This document shows, in pieces, positions 23,205 through 41,403 of a stretch of DNA of 43,065 bases. Location: assembly GCF_036402335.1 (NCBI RefSeq), contig NZ_DASWTD010000411.1:1-43065 (forward strand), in the 5' to 3' direction. The position numbers were made by a program, and so were the translations under genes. Within the stretch, counting starts at the first letter, position 1. Each line of letters begins with the position of its first letter. The notes beneath the pieces are model-generated. The model did no database searches, had not been told where the DNA came from, and saw only the letters and a list, made by a program, of their open reading frames with translations. The stretch comes from Sphingopyxis sp. (GTDB taxonomy: Bacteria > Pseudomonadota > Alphaproteobacteria > Sphingomonadales > Sphingomonadaceae).

Positions 23205-23323
23205 TTCGACGCTGCATGGCTTGGTCCGCTTGGTTGCCGGCTCGGCCACATCCTCCTTGCGGAGCGCCACCTTGCCCGGATCGGCAGGTTGGCGTTGGGC
23301 GTCGACCCAACTCTTGATGCTGA
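23205..23323 (-). ncRNA. SAM-I/IV-variant riboswitch upstream of metA
   Basis: Minus strand CAGCAUCAAGAG-UUGGG(UCGACG)CCCAA-CGCCAACC..GGUGGCG-CUCC(GCAA)GGAG-GAUGUGG. The loop UCGACG is complementary to a downstream CGUCGA (23206-23211), giving a pseudoknot. Confidence 0.8.
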
Positions 23324-23417
23324 TATTCTCTTACGTCGCCGCGCCGGTCTACGCAACAGCCGGTTTCGGCCGATCGAGGCGTGGAATCCGCAACCGGTCG
23401 AAAGTGACGCTTCGAAG

Positions 23418-34059: not shown

Positions 34060-34135
34060 GGGCGCTTAGCTCAGTTGGTAGAGCATCTCGTTTACACCGA
34101 GAGGGTCGGCGGTTCGAGCCCGTCAGCGCCCACCA
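34060..34135 (+). tRNA. tRNA-Val (TAC)
   Basis: Acceptor GGGCGCT/AGCGCCC, anticodon arm TCTCG-TTTACAC-CGAGA, GGTTCGAG T-loop, encoded CCA; 76 nt. Confidence 0.98.
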
Positions 34136-34311: not shown

Positions 34312-34341
34312 TTGACGAATCCAATATCTACCTTTTAAGTT
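34312..34341 (+). promoter_or_regulatory. Putative sigma70 promoter of the sulfur-scavenging operon
   Basis: TTGACG-18-TAAGTT; the predicted +1 near 34348 coincides with the start of the first RNA stem. Confidence 0.55.
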
Positions 34342-34347
34342 GACATT

Positions 34348-34395
34348 GTCATTCGGGACTGGTCGAGACGAATGGCGGGCTCTCCTCCCTCGACC
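34348..34395 (+). ncRNA. Pseudoknotted cis-regulatory RNA candidate (possibly sul1-motif-like)
   Basis: 8-bp stem GUCAUUCG/CGAAUGGC; loop GGUCGAG (34361-67) is complementary to CUCGACC (34389-95). Confidence 0.55.
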
Positions 34396-34445
34396 CGCGG
34401 CTTTTGACCGGGAAGCAGCTTGCTCCGCGTTATCAACGGCTAAAG
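34396..34445 (+). ncRNA. SAM-II/SAM-alpha-like riboswitch aptamer
   Basis: P1 CGCGG/CCGCG, UUUG loop, CUUGC core and 3' GCUAAAG in SAM-II order; located upstream of sulfur genes. Confidence 0.65.
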
Positions 34446-34502
34446 CGCGTGATGCTCGGGCGACAGCGCCAGGCATTGCGTTCCCCCAGAAGGGGTATTG
34501 CG

Positions 34503-34526
34503 ATGCGTATGTGTAGCACCAGTTGA
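34503..34526 (+). CDS. Putative leader peptide MRMCSTS
   Basis: AAGGGG SD 7 nt upstream; ATG CGT ATG TGT AGC ACC AGT TGA followed by TAA. Confidence 0.5.
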   Translation: MRMCSTS

Positions 34527-34854
34527 TAAACGGGCGCCGATGACGTCGCGCGCCGGGTAGCGGTCCGACCGCGCCCGGAGCGACCCGCGGCCTGTCCTTT
34601 CATCCCGGCCGCGCCTGCCTTTCGCGAGGACGCACTGCGGCTTTGCGTCCGGCGCCTGCGCGCGCCGGCGACAGGTGAATCATGCCTTTTCTGACCCAAT
34701 CCGACCTGTCGGATCTGGCTCGCTATCCTGCGTCCCTGCGCAGCGCCGCCCGGGCGCTGTGGGGGGCGGAGCCGACGGCTGCCCGATCGGACGCGGCGCC
34801 CCGCGCCACCATCCATCGCATCAAAAAAGGGGCGGGACTGCCGCCCGGGGAACC

Positions 34855-37308
34855 ATGATAATGTCGAAATTCTCTCCCGAACATCGTTTGAAGCTCTTGC
34901 TCGGCGCGGCGCTGCTGATCCCGGCGGCACCTGCCCGGGCGACCGAAGGCGGGGCAACCGAAAATGCCCCGGCCGAAAGCTCGGCGGCGGATGCCGGCAG
35001 CCTGGCGGTCGAATCTGCCGCGGCCTTCGATGGCGCCGAAATCATCGTGTCGGCGCGTCGCCGCGACGAAAGCGCACAGGAGGTGCCGATCGCGCTGTCG
35101 GTCGTGGGCTCCGAAACGCTTGCGGCGACGGGCAATTATACGCTCACGCAGGTTCAGCAGATCGTTCCCAGCCTGCAGGTGTTCAGCTTCAACCCGCGCA
35201 ACACCAACATCAACATCCGCGGCCTCGGCAGCAATGTCGCGCTGACCAACGACGGGCTGGAGAACGGCGTCGGTTTCTATGTCGACAATGTCTATTACGG
35301 CCGCGTCGGCCAGTCGCAGTTCGACCTGGTCGACCTGCAGCAGATCGAGGTTCTTCGCGGGCCGCAGGGCACGTTGTTCGGCAAGAACACCACATCGGGC
35401 GCGATCAACATCACCTCGAGGAAGCCCAGCTTCGAACCCGAATTTTCGGGCGAAGCGAGCGTCGGCGACTATGGCTATTACCAGCTTCGCGCGTCGGCGT
35501 CGGGCGGGCTGATCGACGACCTGCTCGCGGTTCGCCTGTCGGGCTCGGTGACCGAACGCCGCGGCTTCCTCTATAACGACACGCAGAACGAGCGCGCGCA
35601 GGATTATTCGAACTGGAGCGTGCGAGGGCAGTTGCTGTTCACCCCGACCGCCGACCTCGAAGTCCGCATCATCGGCGACTTCGCGCGCCAGAAGCAGAAT
35701 CATGTCCTCAACGTCTTCGCCGACTATTTCGGGACCTATGAAAATGGCGCGGCGATCCCCAACAGCTTCGCCGAGCGCGCCGCGCGCTTCCCCGGCTATA
35801 GTTTCCCGACGATCGATCCTTTCGCGCGGCGCGGCGAGGCCGACAGCCATTATCAGTCGAACATGGACGGCTATGGCGTATCGGGGCAGGTCGACTGGGA
35901 CGTCGGTGCGGCGAAGCTGACCTCGATCACCGCCTATCGCTGGTGGGACTGGAACCCGGCCAACGATGGCGATTCGACCTCGCTGCCGGTCATCACCAAG
36001 GCGCAGCAATCGAACCGCCAGCGCCAGTTCAGCCAGGAAATTCGCCTCGCCTCCGACAGCGATGGCCCGATCGACTATGTCGTTGGCGCCTATTATTTCT
36101 GGCAGGTGATCCGCGGCAAGGGCGCGAGCGCCTATGGGCCGGCGGCGGCGCTGTGGAACCGCCCCGCGACCTCGCCGCTCACACTCGCCGCGTGGGAAGC
36201 CGCGCTCGACGGCTTCGAGGCCAATTCGACGTCGGACCCGCGCACCAAAAGCTATGCGCTGTTCGGCCAGCTCGACTGGAAATTCACCGACCGGCTGACG
36301 CTGACGGCGGGGCTGCGCTACACGCACGAGAAGAAGAGCGGCTCGTTCACGCAGGTCCATGTCGCGGGGATCGACCTGTCGACCCTGCCGGCGCTGCTCG
36401 CGGCGCAGGCGGCAGGAATTCGCGCGCAGTTCAATCCCGTCACCAGCTATTCGACCGGCTTCACGGACAACAGCCTTTCGGGGCTCGCGACACTGTCGTG
36501 GCAGTTCAGCGACGATGCGCTCGCCTATGCGACTTATGCGCGCGGCAACAAGTCGGGCGGGCTCAACCTCACCAACCTCCCGGCAGGCCTGCGGCCCGAG
36601 GATGTCGCCGCGGTCGCGCCCGAAAAGGTCGACAGCTACGAACTCGGCATCAAGTCGCAGTGGCTCGACGAACGGGTGACGCTCAACGTTGCGGGCTACT
36701 GGACCGAAATCCGCGACTATCAGACCGCGATCACCGAACAGGTGCAGAATTCGGTCAATGTTCGCCAATATATCGCCAATATTCCCGGCGTTCGCTCGCG
36801 CGGGGTCGAGGGCGATCTGGCCTTCGCGCCTTCGCAGCGTGCGAGTTTCTATGCCTCGGTCGCCTATGCCGACACGACGTACAGCGACTATCCCAACGCG
36901 CCGCAGGCGCCCGAGCGGCTGAACGGCAGCGGGATTCAGGATTTGACCGGCGAGCAACTGCCGGGTGTTCCCAAATTCACCTACACGCTCGGCGGCGACG
37001 TTTCGGCCCCGCTCAGCAGCCTCGGCGGGCGCGACCTGTCGATCTATGCCCATGCCGATTATTCGCATCGCTCGTCGTTCAACACCTCGTCGAGCGACAG
37101 CATCTATGCCGACGTTCCCGCCTACGGGATTGCGAACGCACGGATCGGCTTCAAGACCGACGACGGCTTGTTCGACCTGTCGATCTGGGCGCGCAACCTG
37201 TTCGACAAGGATTATTTCCAGACCCTGTCGGCGCAGAACACCGGGATCGTCACCGCGCTGATCGGCGAACCGCGGACGGTGGGCGCGACGCTCCGGACGA
37301 AGCTGTGA
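34855..37308 (+). CDS. TonB-dependent receptor
   Basis: Signal peptide, EIIVSARRR, IEVLRGPQGTLFGKNT plug motif, NLFDKDY..GEPRTVG C-terminus. Confidence 0.93.
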   Translation: MIMSKFSPEHRLKLLLGAALLIPAAPARATEGGATENAPAESSAADAGSLAVESAAAFDGAEIIVSARRRDESAQEVPIALSVVGSETLAATGNYTLTQVQQIVPSLQVFSFNPRNTNINIRGLGSNVALTNDGLENGVGFYVDNVYYGRVGQSQFDLVDLQQIEVLRGPQGTLFGKNTTSGAINITSRKPSFEPEFSGEASVGDYGYYQLRASASGGLIDDLLAVRLSGSVTERRGFLYNDTQNERAQDYSNWSVRGQLLFTPTADLEVRIIGDFARQKQNHVLNVFADYFGTYENGAAIPNSFAERAARFPGYSFPTIDPFARRGEADSHYQSNMDGYGVSGQVDWDVGAAKLTSITAYRWWDWNPANDGDSTSLPVITKAQQSNRQRQFSQEIRLASDSDGPIDYVVGAYYFWQVIRGKGASAYGPAAALWNRPATSPLTLAAWEAALDGFEANSTSDPRTKSYALFGQLDWKFTDRLTLTAGLRYTHEKKSGSFTQVHVAGIDLSTLPALLAAQAAGIRAQFNPVTSYSTGFTDNSLSGLATLSWQFSDDALAYATYARGNKSGGLNLTNLPAGLRPEDVAAVAPEKVDSYELGIKSQWLDERVTLNVAGYWTEIRDYQTAITEQVQNSVNVRQYIANIPGVRSRGVEGDLAFAPSQRASFYASVAYADTTYSDYPNAPQAPERLNGSGIQDLTGEQLPGVPKFTYTLGGDVSAPLSSLGGRDLSIYAHADYSHRSSFNTSSSDSIYADVPAYGIANARIGFKTDDGLFDLSIWARNLFDKDYFQTLSAQNTGIVTALIGEPRTVGATLRTKL

Positions 37309-38660
37309 TGAGCGCCGCGCCGCCCCCCACCGCCGGCCAGCTCGCCCGCTTCTCCGCGGTCGCGGTGCCGCTTGCCGCCGCCGGACTCCCTCTCGGCGTG
37401 TACCTCCCCGCCATCTATGCGCGCGATTATGGCCTGTCGCTGACGGTGATCGGCGTCATCTTCCTGCTCGGCCGATTGTGGGACGCCATCGCCGATCCGG
37501 TGATGGGGTCGCTCAGCGACCGGACGCGCAGCATCTATGGGCGGCGCAAGCCGTGGATCGCGGCGGGCGGGGTCGTCTTCGGCCTGTCGTCGATCTTTCT
37601 CTTCTTTCCGCCATTCGGGGTGACGCCCCTCTCGCTCGGGCTCGTGCTCTTCTTTTTCTACCTCGGCTGGACCGCGGTGCAGATCCCGTTCCAGGCATGG
37701 TCGGGCGAAGTGTCGGGCGACTATCACCAGCGCACGCGGATCGCGACCTACCAGACCGTCGTGACCTCGTCGGCCTTGCTGCTGACGCTGATCCTGCCGA
37801 CGATCGCCGACCAGCTGCGCCCCGGCGACGGGCATCTGCAGCTGTCGCTGATGGGCGGACTGGTTTTGCTGTCGATCGTTCCGGCGCTTGTTCTGACGCT
37901 GACGGCGCTCAAGGAACCGCCGCTGCCGCCGCTTCCGGTCGGCAAGCCGAGCCTCAAGGACACGATCCGCGCGATCACCGGCGAGCCGCTGCTGCTGCGC
38001 GTGCTTGCTTCCGATTTCGCGGTGACCCTCGCGCAGAATATCCGCGCCGCGCTGATCGTCTTTTTCGTGACCTTCTATATGGGCCGCCCCGAATGGGCAG
38101 GCGGCCTGTTCCTGTTCCAGTTCGTCTTCGGCATCTTTGCTGGACCGATCTGGCTCAAGATCGGGCGCCGCTACGGCAAGCACCGCACCGCCGTCGCGGG
38201 AGAGCTGGTGCAGGTGGTCATCAACCTGTCGCTGCTGCTCGTCACCCCCGACACCTTCCCGCTGCTGCTCGCGCTGACGCTGGCGCAGGGGCTGGCGCAG
38301 GGTTCGGGCAACCTGATGCTCCGCGCCATCGTCGCCGACGTCGCCGACAAGCATCGTCTCGACAGCGGCGAGGATCGCACCGGGCTGTATTATTCGGTGT
38401 TCAGCCTGGCCGGGAAGACCGCGACCGCGGTGGCCATCGGCATCGCGCTGCCGCTCGTCAGCTGGCTGGGCTTCGATCCCAAGGGCGTCAACAGCCCCGA
38501 GGCGCTGACCGGCCTGCTCCTCGTCTTCGCTCTTGGCCCCGCCATCGCCCACGCCTTGTCCGCCGCCCTCATTGCGCGCTTCCCGCTCGACGAGGCGGCA
38601 CACGCCGAAATTCGCCGACAGCTCGATCCCGGACCGCCGGACTATGCCTTCGCCGAATGA
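37308..38660 (+). CDS. MFS transporter (GPH/MelB-like family)
   Basis: RLWDAIADPVMGSLSDRTRSIYGRRKPW; about 12 TM segments; TGATG overlap with the TBDR. Confidence 0.9.
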   Translation: MSAAPPPTAGQLARFSAVAVPLAAAGLPLGVYLPAIYARDYGLSLTVIGVIFLLGRLWDAIADPVMGSLSDRTRSIYGRRKPWIAAGGVVFGLSSIFLFFPPFGVTPLSLGLVLFFFYLGWTAVQIPFQAWSGEVSGDYHQRTRIATYQTVVTSSALLLTLILPTIADQLRPGDGHLQLSLMGGLVLLSIVPALVLTLTALKEPPLPPLPVGKPSLKDTIRAITGEPLLLRVLASDFAVTLAQNIRAALIVFFVTFYMGRPEWAGGLFLFQFVFGIFAGPIWLKIGRRYGKHRTAVAGELVQVVINLSLLLVTPDTFPLLLALTLAQGLAQGSGNLMLRAIVADVADKHRLDSGEDRTGLYYSVFSLAGKTATAVAIGIALPLVSWLGFDPKGVNSPEALTGLLLVFALGPAIAHALSAALIARFPLDEAAHAEIRRQLDPGPPDYAFAE

Positions 38661-38697
38661 CCACGCCTGCCAACCCGTAACCCCAAGGAGACTGACA

Positions 38698-39651
38698 ATG
38701 ACGGACCTTCATAACAGCTATGCCAATGCGCGCGACAAGGGCATCGACCTCGACGTCACCCCGGTGACCGGCACGATCGGTGCGATCGTGAACGGCGTCC
38801 AGCTGTCGGGCGACCTGCCCGCTGCGACGGTGCAGGCCATCCAGGCGGCGCTCGTGCGGCACAAGGTGCTGTTCTTCCGCGACCAGCAGCATCTGACCGA
38901 TCAGGAGCATGAGGATTTTGCCGCCCAGCTCGGCGATCCGATCGCGCACCCGACGGTGCCGGTCGCCGAAGGGTCGCGCTATCTGCTCGAGCTCGACAGC
39001 CGCGAAGGCTATGCCGCGTCGAGCTGGCACACCGACGTGACCTTCGTCGATGCCTACCCCAAGGCATCGATCCTGCGCGCGCTCACCATCCCGGAGGCGG
39101 GCGGAGATACGCAGTGGGCGAACGGCGAGACGGCCTATGAAGGTCTGCCCGAGGTGCTGCGCCAGCTCGTCAACAATCTGTGGGCGACGCACACCAACCT
39201 CTACGACTATGCCGCAATCCTGCAGTCGGCGCCCGACAACGACACCGCGCGCGAGCGCATCGCCCAGCACCGCAACGTCTTTGCCTCGACCGTCTATGAA
39301 ACCGAACATCCCGTGGTGCGCGTGCATCCCGTCAGCGGCCAGCGCAGCCTGCTCCTCGGCCACTTCGTCAAGCAGTTCGTCGGGCTGAACGCCACCGACA
39401 GCGCGCGGCTGTTCCAGACGCTGCAGGATCACATCACCAAGCCCGAGAATGTCGTGCGCTGGCGCTGGCGCGAGGGCGACGTCGCGATCTGGGACAACCA
39501 GGCGACCCAGCACCGCGCGACCGCCGACTTCGGACTCCAGCGCCGGACGCTGCGCCGTGCGACGATCGCGGGTGAAATCCCGGTTTCGATCGACGGACGC
39601 AAGAGCCGCACCGTGCGCAAGGACAAAGCGGTTCAATACGAACCGGCGTGA
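38698..39651 (+). CDS. TauD/AtsK-type Fe(II)/2-oxoglutarate dioxygenase (alkylsulfatase/sulfonate)
   Basis: HKVLFFRDQ, WHTDVTF (HxD), HPVVRVHP, WDNQATQH; AAGGAG SD. Confidence 0.9.
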   Translation: MTDLHNSYANARDKGIDLDVTPVTGTIGAIVNGVQLSGDLPAATVQAIQAALVRHKVLFFRDQQHLTDQEHEDFAAQLGDPIAHPTVPVAEGSRYLLELDSREGYAASSWHTDVTFVDAYPKASILRALTIPEAGGDTQWANGETAYEGLPEVLRQLVNNLWATHTNLYDYAAILQSAPDNDTARERIAQHRNVFASTVYETEHPVVRVHPVSGQRSLLLGHFVKQFVGLNATDSARLFQTLQDHITKPENVVRWRWREGDVAIWDNQATQHRATADFGLQRRTLRRATIAGEIPVSIDGRKSRTVRKDKAVQYEPA

Positions 39652-39700
39652 CGAATTCGGCCGGCGCCCGACTCCTCTCCCTCTTGCGCTGGTCCAGACT

Positions 39701-39738
39701 GCGGCGCGCCCGGGTTTCATTCGCCCGCGGCGCGCTGC
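39701..39738 (+). other. GC-rich intergenic hairpin
   Basis: GCGGCGCGCCCGGG...CCCGCGGCGCGCTGC between the dioxygenase and the sulfatase. Confidence 0.4.
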
Positions 39739-39762
39739 CCTTCCTTTATGAGGACGCCCCCC

Positions 39763-41403
39763 ATGAAACATCTTGTGCCGTTGCTGATCGCCCTTTTCGT
39801 CGCCGTCCCGTCCGCGCAGGCGAAGGAGCGGCGGCCGAATCTGCTTGTGATCGTTGCGGACGATCTCGGCTATTCGGACCTCGGCGCGTTCGGCGGCGAG
39901 ATCGCGACGCCGAACCTCGACCGGCTCGCGCTCGGCGGCATCCGTCTCGCGGGATTTCACACCGCGCCGACCTGTTCGCCGACGCGTTCGATGCTGCTTT
40001 CGGGCACCGACAATCATCTGGCCGGGCTCGGTACGATGGCGGAAATGATCCGGCCGAACCAGCAGGGCAAGCCCGGCTACGAAGGTTATCTGCGCAGCGA
40101 CGTCGCGACGCTCGCCGAGCGGCTGCGGGAAGGCGGTTACCGGACGCTCTTTTCGGGCAAGTGGCACCTTGGGCTGACCGAAGAACAGGATCCTTTCGCG
40201 CGCGGTTTCCAGCGCAGCTTTGCGCTTGCGCAGGGCGGGCACAATCATTTCGGGACCGATGCCGGCATCGAGCCACCGGATGGCACGACCTATCGGGACA
40301 ATGGCAAGCGGGTCCGGCGCCTGCCCGGGGATTTCTATTCGAGCGACTATTTTGCGACGCGTCTCATCGATTTCCTGGGCGAGCGTCCCGCCGCCGGGGA
40401 GGGGAAGCAGCCCTTTTTCGCCTATCTGGCCTTTACCGCGCCGCACTGGCCGCTTCAGGCGCCGCCCGAGGATATTGCCCGTTACCGCGGGCGATACGAC
40501 GAAGGCTTCGACGTGTTGCGCGAACGGCGGCTGGCGCGGCAAATTGCGCTGGGAATCCTGCCTTCGGGCGTCGTGGCGCATGTGCCGCGCAACCGCGACG
40601 GCAGCTGGGATTCGCTGACCGCCGAGCAGAAGCGCACCGCCGCACGCAACATGGAAATCTATGCCGCGATGGTCGACCGGCTCGACCGGAATGTCGGCCG
40701 GGTGATCGCCCGGCTGCGTGCTTCGGGCGAGCTCGACAATACGGTGATCGTCTTTCTGGCCGATAATGGCGCCGAGGCGCTCGATGCCGAGACCACCGGC
40801 GCGGCGATGCTCGCAAAGCGGCTCGAGGGCGCCGACAACGGTTTCGCCAATCGCGGGGCAGCGTCGTCCTACATCACTTATGGCGCCGGCTGGGCGCAGG
40901 CCGCCACGGCGCCTTCGTGGCTGACCAAAGGCTATCAGACCGAAGGCGGCACGCGCGTCGTTGCCTTCATCAGCGGCGCCGGTATTCCGCAGCGCAAGGG
41001 CGCCGATACGCAGTTCCTCTCCGTCGTCGACATCGCCCCGACCCTGCTCGAACTCGCCGGGGTCGATCCGGCGGCAACCGAGGTCGAGGGCCGGGCGGTG
41101 CGTCCGATCACCGGCCGCTCGTGGACGGCATGGCTGCGGGATCCCGGGGCCCGCATCTATGGCGCCGACGATGGCTTCGGGGCCGAGCTGTTCGGTTCGC
41201 GCGCCTATCGCCAGGGCGACTGGAAACTCACCGACATCGGCGACGGTGCCTGGCGCCTGTTCGATATCGCCCGCGACCCTGGCGAAACGCACGACCTGTC
41301 GCGCGACGAACCTGCAAGGCGCGCGGCGCTGGTCGAAGCGTGGAAGCGCTATGCGCGCGATGTCGGCGTCATTGATCCCGATTCGATCCCGTACCGGCCA
41401 TAG
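39763..41403 (+). CDS. Periplasmic Cys-type arylsulfatase (AtsA-like)
   Basis: Signal peptide; ADDLGYSD, CSPTR (CxPxR formylglycine motif), GKWHLG, TAPHWP, DNG. Confidence 0.92.
   Translation: MKHLVPLLIALFVAVPSAQAKERRPNLLVIVADDLGYSDLGAFGGEIATPNLDRLALGGIRLAGFHTAPTCSPTRSMLLSGTDNHLAGLGTMAEMIRPNQQGKPGYEGYLRSDVATLAERLREGGYRTLFSGKWHLGLTEEQDPFARGFQRSFALAQGGHNHFGTDAGIEPPDGTTYRDNGKRVRRLPGDFYSSDYFATRLIDFLGERPAAGEGKQPFFAYLAFTAPHWPLQAPPEDIARYRGRYDEGFDVLRERRLARQIALGILPSGVVAHVPRNRDGSWDSLTAEQKRTAARNMEIYAAMVDRLDRNVGRVIARLRASGELDNTVIVFLADNGAEALDAETTGAAMLAKRLEGADNGFANRGAASSYITYGAGWAQAATAPSWLTKGYQTEGGTRVVAFISGAGIPQRKGADTQFLSVVDIAPTLLELAGVDPAATEVEGRAVRPITGRSWTAWLRDPGARIYGADDGFGAELFGSRAYRQGDWKLTDIGDGAWRLFDIARDPGETHDLSRDEPARRAALVEAWKRYARDVGVIDPDSIPYRP

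Follow-up and report, generated by a model that had tools for sequence, protein, structure and literature searches.

A Sphingomonadales variant of the SAM-II aptamer with a predicted expression platform directed at a short upstream open reading frame

The leader described here precedes a gene for a TonB-dependent receptor (TBDR) in Sphingopyxis sp. (contig NZ_DASWTD010000411.1, positions 1 to 43,065; this whole stretch of 43,065 nt is called the window). It contains an aptamer resembling the SAM-II riboswitch for S-adenosylmethionine (SAM), followed by two alternative helices predicted to open or bury the start of a short upstream open reading frame (uORF). Comparison of related sequences supports well the view that this is a Sphingomonadales variant of SAM-II with an unusual, uORF-directed platform. 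We tentatively suggest, a little short of an even chance, that the variant switches off a Met-containing uORF, and that translation of the uORF shields the transcript from Rho-type termination before a sulfur-scavenging operon. The features that carry this finding are as follows.

34396..34448, + strand: SAM-II-like aptamer variant; P1 34396-400/34425-29, U10-U12 at 34403-05, U20-C23 at 34420-23, G42-A47 at 34439-44
34401, 34402 and 34424, in the aptamer: variant positions, with C at G8, U at A9 and U at A24, respectively
34447..34481, + strand: predicted ON helix A:B, 34447-55 with 34473-81, enclosing the hairpin 34459-70; 34447-48 are common to A:B and P2
34473..34506, + strand: predicted OFF helix B:C, 34473-79 with 34500-06 plus an anti-Shine-Dalgarno pairing CCCC/GGGG; covers the Shine-Dalgarno sequence (SD) 34490-95 and AUG 34503
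34503..34526, + strand: uORF MRMCSTS, seven codons and a stop; M[RH]MC and a length of 7-8 amino acids (aa) in 17/17 orthologues

The leader is matched in 20 of 61 genomes, and a nearly full-length copy is present in 16 of 36 genomes of the same genus; 12 further loci have in common just ~34392-34486, which stands there ahead of other genes. One orthologue, L013, comes from an unpublished genome (G001) and is counted among the 16, in alignment A1 and in model R1; no conclusion rests solely on it. The modules proposed in an earlier sequence-only reading of this DNA are conserved among the orthologous leaders, as that reading expected. A search with R1 gave matches in 6/151 genomes of the order, with one copy in the own genome. 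When species genomes were scanned with a pattern that sets most of the core letters, 20 of 64 parts yielded 121 loci. Five features that the pattern does not demand are carried by 101 of these loci, four by one locus and at most two by the remaining 19. The five-feature loci are labelled Sphingomonadales in 97 of 101 cases (the other four labels are unspecific), and none of the 19 low-feature loci is so labelled. The scan puts the family at ~390 genome stretches, an estimate that includes chance matches (20/121 seen). A metagenome scan gave 120 loci. A class-wide pattern search among 401 genomes, three of them from the own family, found the own genome only, and there were no matches in viral contigs.

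Among 62 scanned loci the downstream genes include 19 TBDR, 10 GATase, nine TauD, four SsuA-like, two CysE-like, two aminotransferase and two serine hydrolase genes. The TauD, SsuA-like and CysE-like genes and the sulfatase operon provide a Met, SAM or sulfur context. The available part of PMC4239095 places SAM_alpha in Rhizobiales and Rhodobacterales only, with none in seven Sphingomonadales genomes (all papers are cited here for those parts of their text that were available).

We compared the aptamer with the SAM_alpha consensus and with the residue list of PMC3764141, which gives 13 completely conserved SAM-II pocket residues and SAM contacts at U11, U21, U44, A47 and G22. All 13 residues (U10-U12, U20-C23 and G42-A47) are kept in the window and with them every reported SAM contact, while P1 is one pair shorter than in SAM-II, the last pair being gone. 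Across 87 sequences P1 is 100% paired and seven P2 pairs are invariant; there is little covariation, the core being partly fixed by the scan pattern. At positions that the scan left free (C allowed), U44 is found in 101/101 and U10 in 100/101 loci. The changes are family-wide: all 101 loci have C at G8 and U at A24, both fixed by the pattern, and 99/101 have U at A9, where the base is always a pyrimidine.

The core of the SAM-II-like aptamer that had been read from the sequence at 34396-445 is present and conserved, but an Rfam check, at the gathering threshold and at E<=10, found no match in the leader to SAM_alpha, SAM-II long loops, SAM-V or sul1. RF00521 had no match in the window, the own genome or 14 family loci, and the control genomes gave no positive above the cut-off. 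Because G8 of the G8-G42-C23 triple is replaced by C in the window and in every family copy, we file the element as a SAM-II variant and not as a member. Locus L036 (211-315) reaches 34.7 bits with R1 and, just under the cut-off of 36, 32.5 bits with SAM_alpha. It has the canonical loop together with the 3' tail of the variant family, precedes a probable sulfate-binding protein gene and comes from another family of Sphingomonadales. These mixed features and scores link canonical SAM-II with the variant family, and L036 is likely to be an evolutionary intermediate. Judged by its pocket, the variant aptamer probably has SAM as its ligand.

Two other RNA elements were considered in this genome. 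We rejected the idea that the leader is the sul1 motif: RF03058 has no score here and no match in the own genome, and it was positive in 2/5 genomes, at other loci. There is also a SAM-I/IV riboswitch (Rfam, 61.6 bits) at window 23220-23325 on the minus strand, before a gene of the homoserine O-succinyltransferase family, and the genome uses two SAM folds.

An AUG led by an SD lies 52-65 nt 3' of the core in 116/123 unique loci. At 72 loci (class A) it opens a uORF of at most 15 codons, and at 31 (class B) a conserved peptide of 44-61 aa with PHxSW and FWxRLGL motifs. The helices A:B and B:C are mutually exclusive. Competing helices had been proposed for this leader, and both are present and covary. 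Covariation was measured in 87 hand-picked, largely non-redundant loci, in an alignment fitted to B:C and not to A:B. A:B with its inner hairpin has double changes at 8/13 pairs and 90% of cells paired, and none of 500 shuffles scored as high; B:C, which holds the AUG, has double changes at 7/7 pairs and is 91% paired, in the alignment fitted to it. In the window the two helices are at -23.7 (A:B) and -23.6 (B:C) kcal/mol, and blocking four P2 bases flips the minimum free energy structure. The partition function gives A:B/B:C values for class A of 0.48/0.42, changing to 0.23/0.69 on blocking. The fold of the whole leader is no better than that of shuffles (z -0.85). At L018, L099 and L146 the buried AUG is the start of a real gene, which suggests that the AUG is the target of the switch. 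On the sequence evidence, the switch probably controls the start of the uORF.

The class-B peptides (L046:1302-1472, L066:989-1141 on the minus strand, L092:1302-1433 and 28 more) are unannotated, have no Pfam match and stand before GATase or Met-aminotransferase-like genes. They have a fixed aliphatic C-terminus, which may resemble CysK-binding tails.

The uORF MRMCSTS, one of the elements read earlier, is in place at 34503-34526. Its codon content was measured in a first set of 43 clusters and in a held-out metagenome set (120 loci, of which 113 were usable, 104 short and 58 unlike the first set, in 41 clusters; the pattern selected class A). In the first set Met takes 29 of 294 codons in frame; the other two frames give 1.0 and 3.5 and shuffles 3.5, and from codon 4 onward there are 13 as against 2.1. 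The held-out set gives 29 of 276 codons in frame, 1 and 1 in the other frames and 2.6 in shuffles. At codons 2-8 of ordinary genes Met makes up 2.1%. Cys was enriched in the first set (13 vs 6.2 expected, p=0.009) but this was not replicated in the held-out set (7 vs 4.2, p=0.13). A leader peptide sensing both Met and Cys had been proposed; the Met half is borne out by in-frame enrichment in both sets, and the Cys half is not. MC is invariant in 17 orthologues and the Cys codon is always TGT, so that constraint on protein and on RNA is inseparable there. The length is 7-8 codons in 84 of 113 held-out uORFs. The codon bias makes sensing of Met codons by the uORF conceivable, and we put it somewhat below an even chance.

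Pro-Pro occurs in 7/30 uORF clusters that lack Met and Cys (uORFs of L023, L024, L026, L224, L265 and L304) and in 1/54 that have them. The Pro-Pro uORFs without Met and Cys possibly impose a constitutive ribosome pause instead, and they probably belong largely to one lineage.

Beyond the uORF there is a stretch of skewed composition.

34560..34630, + strand: tract rich in C and poor in G, a candidate site for Rho utilisation; 31 C and 22 G, ~2:1 in orthologues

In the 110 nt after the uORF stop the C>G skew is significant, with a value of 0.089; it is 0.012 in 261 upstream regions of the own genome, and paired controls (34 loci) give 0.020 and 0.009. It is 0.062 in the held-out set and 0.03 in class B. 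There is no intrinsic terminator on the + strand in the leader, and terminator-like sites occur in only 3/43 family loci; an intrinsic-terminator model was rejected on these grounds. The genome has a rho gene. The C-rich tract and the rarity of intrinsic terminators suggest a relay through Rho, for which we see the chances as evenly balanced. The leader peptides mgtL and tnaC are Rho-dependent attenuators in which a short uORF is followed by a C-rich tract with no intrinsic terminator. This leader would differ from them in that initiation of the uORF is gated by a predicted aptamer and that the marked codon is Met.

Upstream of the aptamer there is a further RNA fold.

34348..34395, + strand: 5' H-type pseudoknot, S1 34348-55/34369-76 and S2 34361-67/34389-95, abutting P1

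This pseudoknot, also noticed in the sequence-only reading, is conserved in shape: a comparable one (S2 and S1 each of at least 5 bp) is found in 23/43 class-A (short-uORF) representatives, as against 3.5% of shuffles, and in 6/31 of class B. Its sequence is free save for GRYC adjoining P1 (37/43). It is likely to be structural, stacking on and stabilizing P1 or protecting the 5' end, and not a sensor.

The leader is preceded by promoter-like and operator-like sequences.

34312..34341, + strand: promoter-like element, -35 TTGACG 34312-17, 18 nt, -10 TAAGTT 34336-41; predicted transcription start site (TSS) near 34347
34327..34343, no strand: palindromic operator TCWAY-N7-RTWGA over the spacer and -10, candidate Rrf2-type repressor site
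G000:C374:4632-5075 (L161/L170): Rrf2 gene, candidate sulfur-regulon repressor, with the palindrome ~50 nt upstream
G000:C444:3178, C405:1486, C194:877, C41:3459, C277:1029 and C61:13922: further operator sites in the own genome

The promoter letters TTGACG-18-TAAGTT are in place as described earlier, and TTGAC is retained in all 16 orthologues holding the region, but a sigma-70 consensus scan made no promoter call there. The palindrome, which the earlier reading overlooked together with the 58-aa gene described below, scores at least 9/10 in 81/121 upstream regions, as against 3% of shuffles. The same palindrome stands upstream of 7/20 orthologues of one Rrf2 gene (as against 2.2%), and several other Rrf2 orthologues adjoin apparent sulfate-transport genes. 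In the own genome the further sites precede a hydrolase-cysK-like operon and tauD-like, GATase, TBDR and TauE-like genes, named from the sequence and not by domain scan. This suggests that the palindrome is likely to be the site of an Rrf2 repressor. SahR is disfavoured as its owner, because the ahcY and metK promoters score just 8/10 and 7/10 with the operator motif; the letters of the published 20-bp SahR motif were not compared. A LysR-type regulator may be an alternative owner.

Between the C-rich tract and the receptor there is a second small gene, followed by the operon.

34682..34858, + strand: conserved 58-aa small gene (YPxSLxxAAxALWG family) with its own SD; its stop overlaps the receptor start
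34855..37308, + strand: TBDR (Pfam Plug and barrel); the conserved start is probably the second ATG, 34861
37308..41403, + strand: major facilitator superfamily (MFS) transporter, TauD-family dioxygenase and sulfatase (Pfam; NCBIfam, below cut-off, to taurine dioxygenase and arylsulfatase)

The 330 nt before the receptor had been described as GC-rich leader, but the 58-codon frame at 34682-34858 fills half of it. It is intact in 16/17 orthologues, and its stop touches the next AUG in 15/16. The protein has 70 close homologues and 44 representatives at 50% clustering, of which one or two are chance matches, and relatives of the frame occur in five other riboswitch leaders; there is no Pfam or NCBIfam match. 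That the frame is mere RNA structure was rejected, with 49 of 105 changed positions being third positions and the motif holding across genera. The PPG at the C-terminus of the protein probably reflects the SD and hairpin located at that place. A hairpin at window 34824-34846, just before the receptor SD with an A run ahead, reads as a minus-strand terminator. The frame is shifted in L015, and no intact receptor frame was found after the leader in L014 and L017. The genes downstream of the leader (TonB receptor, MFS transporter, TauD-family dioxygenase and sulfatase) agree with the sulfur-scavenging context proposed before, and their families suggest an organosulfur-scavenging operon.

We propose the following order of events. 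In sulfur shortage the repressor, probably an Rrf2 protein, would leave the promoter. With no ligand bound A:B would form and the uORF start would be open; with SAM bound P2 would take the 5' end of A, B would pair with C, and SD and AUG would be buried. The uORF would then be untranslated and the C-rich tract exposed to Rho. Read-through would be favoured when a ribosome lingers on the uORF, for example at Met codons when Met is scarce, and the 58-aa frame would pass ribosomes to the receptor gene through the stop/start overlap. In its fullest form this would be a three-layer AND gate in hundreds of sphingomonad leaders, in which an Rrf2 repressor, a SAM-II variant licensing a uORF of 7-8 codons and the blocking of Rho by ribosomes that linger at Met codons act together; this we regard as doubtful. 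If true, expression of the scavenging genes would require that sulfur, SAM and methionyl-tRNA all run short together.

Several observations weigh against the proposed SAM switch and Rho relay. The loss of G8 and the absence of any Rfam score are two of them. On blocking, just 18/41 class-A and 4/31 class-B copies switch, a shorter fragment of the window locus is already 90% B:C when unblocked, and A:B and P2 overlap by only ~2 pairs. We infer from this weak ensemble switching that the switch is more likely to be kinetic and co-transcriptional than to be a simple equilibrium. Of the uORF clusters, 15/43 and 15/41 have no internal Met or Cys, including all three that are SsuA-linked; codon 3 carries much of the Met signal, which might there reflect a second start or a preference for certain nucleotides; and the p-values overstate, because the clusters are related. 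Finally, C-richness peaks 40-80 nt past the uORF stop, beyond the ribosome footprint, so that simple masking by the ribosome is insufficient, and the skew is milder in the window than in its orthologues.

The same SAM switch could act on the uORF start with a relay other than Rho: the riboswitch SD may serve as a remote loading site for ribosomes, or ribosomes on the uORF may open up or shield the RNA for the benefit of the 58-aa frame and the receptor. In Sinorhizobium meliloti the metA SD acts over a distance of 74 nt and SAM-II has an effect on the stability of the mRNA (PMC9373788), the Mycobacterium tuberculosis ppe2 uORF relays by termination-reinitiation (PMC11260477), and at L042 the uORF and the motif of the 58-aa family are one frame. 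The next start, however, is ~155 nt past the uORF stop and has its own SD, and such a relay leaves the conserved C>G skew and the tight length of 7-8 codons unexplained, and we consider it fairly unlikely. It is more unlikely again that the variant senses another ligand, such as S-adenosylhomocysteine, methylthioadenosine or another sulfonium, in a pocket remodelled by the three family-wide changes. The constancy of these changes throughout 101 loci would fit, as would targets in sulfur scavenging and not in Met synthesis, the SAM-I/IV control of the homoserine acyltransferase gene, and the variant aptamers with changed ligands that are reported in the literature. Against this, all five reported SAM contacts are kept, and C at position 8 could still allow a C-G-C triple.

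The sequence-only reading in full, with the pseudoknot as an independent second sensor and a peptide sensing both Met and Cys, is very unlikely. The class-A conservation of the pseudoknot shape, the invariant MC and the first-set Cys count favour it. The pseudoknot, however, is kept in shape and hardly in sequence; it stacks directly on P1, lacks an expression platform of its own and is missing in most class-B copies, and beyond GRYC there is no second domain with conserved ligand-contacting nucleotides and no Rfam match. A second RNA sensor in the leader is therefore improbable, and Cys sensing meets the held-out failure and the ambiguity of the TGT codon. Least probable is that the RNA layer is vestigial or constitutive and the operator alone regulates: the same operator does precede other sulfur genes of the genome that have no aptamer, but the invariant core and the covarying alternative helices across several genera imply selection.

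The earlier premise that SAM-II acts on the SD of the adjacent gene is too narrow, since many SAM-II are followed by terminators (PMC1273637) and S. meliloti metA is under SAM-II control at a distance of 74 nt (PMC9373788). The variant shares with SAM-II (RF00521; PMC1273637, PMC3764141) the P1 and P2 pseudoknot, the UUU/UUGC/GCUAAA pocket, an A-containing L3, a promoter shortly upstream and sulfur-related genes. It differs in the changes G8>C, A9>U and A24>U, a shorter P1, the lack of an Rfam score, the 5' pseudoknot extension, its Sphingomonadales host, genes for scavenging and not Met synthesis, and a separate A:B/B:C platform on a uORF. In S. meliloti metA the platform SD is likewise well upstream of the gene start, but AUG1 is in frame and unused with a terminator between, whereas here there is a short Met-rich uORF with the gene 350 nt away. 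The ppe2 B12 riboswitch also masks a uORF start, and its downstream gene needs a stop/start overlap; the ligand is another one and uORF and gene overlap directly, in contrast with the untranslated C-rich gap and second small gene here. Tandem SAM-II (PMC9481103) resembles this leader in multi-layer sulfur control on a SAM-II fold, but the available text gives no case with a uORF, leader peptide, attenuator or Rho, and the leader here has no second aptamer. The sul1 motif (RF03058; PMC5737381) is likewise a cis element before sulfur genes in the same bacteria; its sequence is unrelated, and it occurs elsewhere in the genomes of two relatives and is absent from the window genome. We found no description of the variant family in the literature (subscription papers were outside the scope, and the supplementary data of PMC1273637 and PMC5737381 could list such RNAs), and it is not mentioned in the available parts of PMC8632094, PMC11109978 and PMC13285730.

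The family fills a gap, since SAM-II is reported absent from the Sphingomonadales examined in the available part of PMC4239095, and it suggests that riboswitch counts overlook whole lineage variants. It offers a compact test of whether changes at G8, A9 and A24 alter the choice of ligand, and what would be a naturally occurring example of a riboswitch and a Met-codon leader peptide acting in series. The family further draws attention to candidate TonB receptors for organosulfur, to two small-protein families that lack annotation and to a sulfur regulon for which a repressor can be proposed.

There are 24 RNA runs matching the locus, with shares <0.1, all of them contigs. Of four examined, three extend upstream of the promoter; they carry no TSS, strand or end information. 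Finally, a tRNA-Val gene (anticodon TAC) lies at window 34060-34132, next to the promoter on its upstream side. Since the operon has a patchy distribution among genomes of the genus (16/36), a tRNA-linked insertion is possible.

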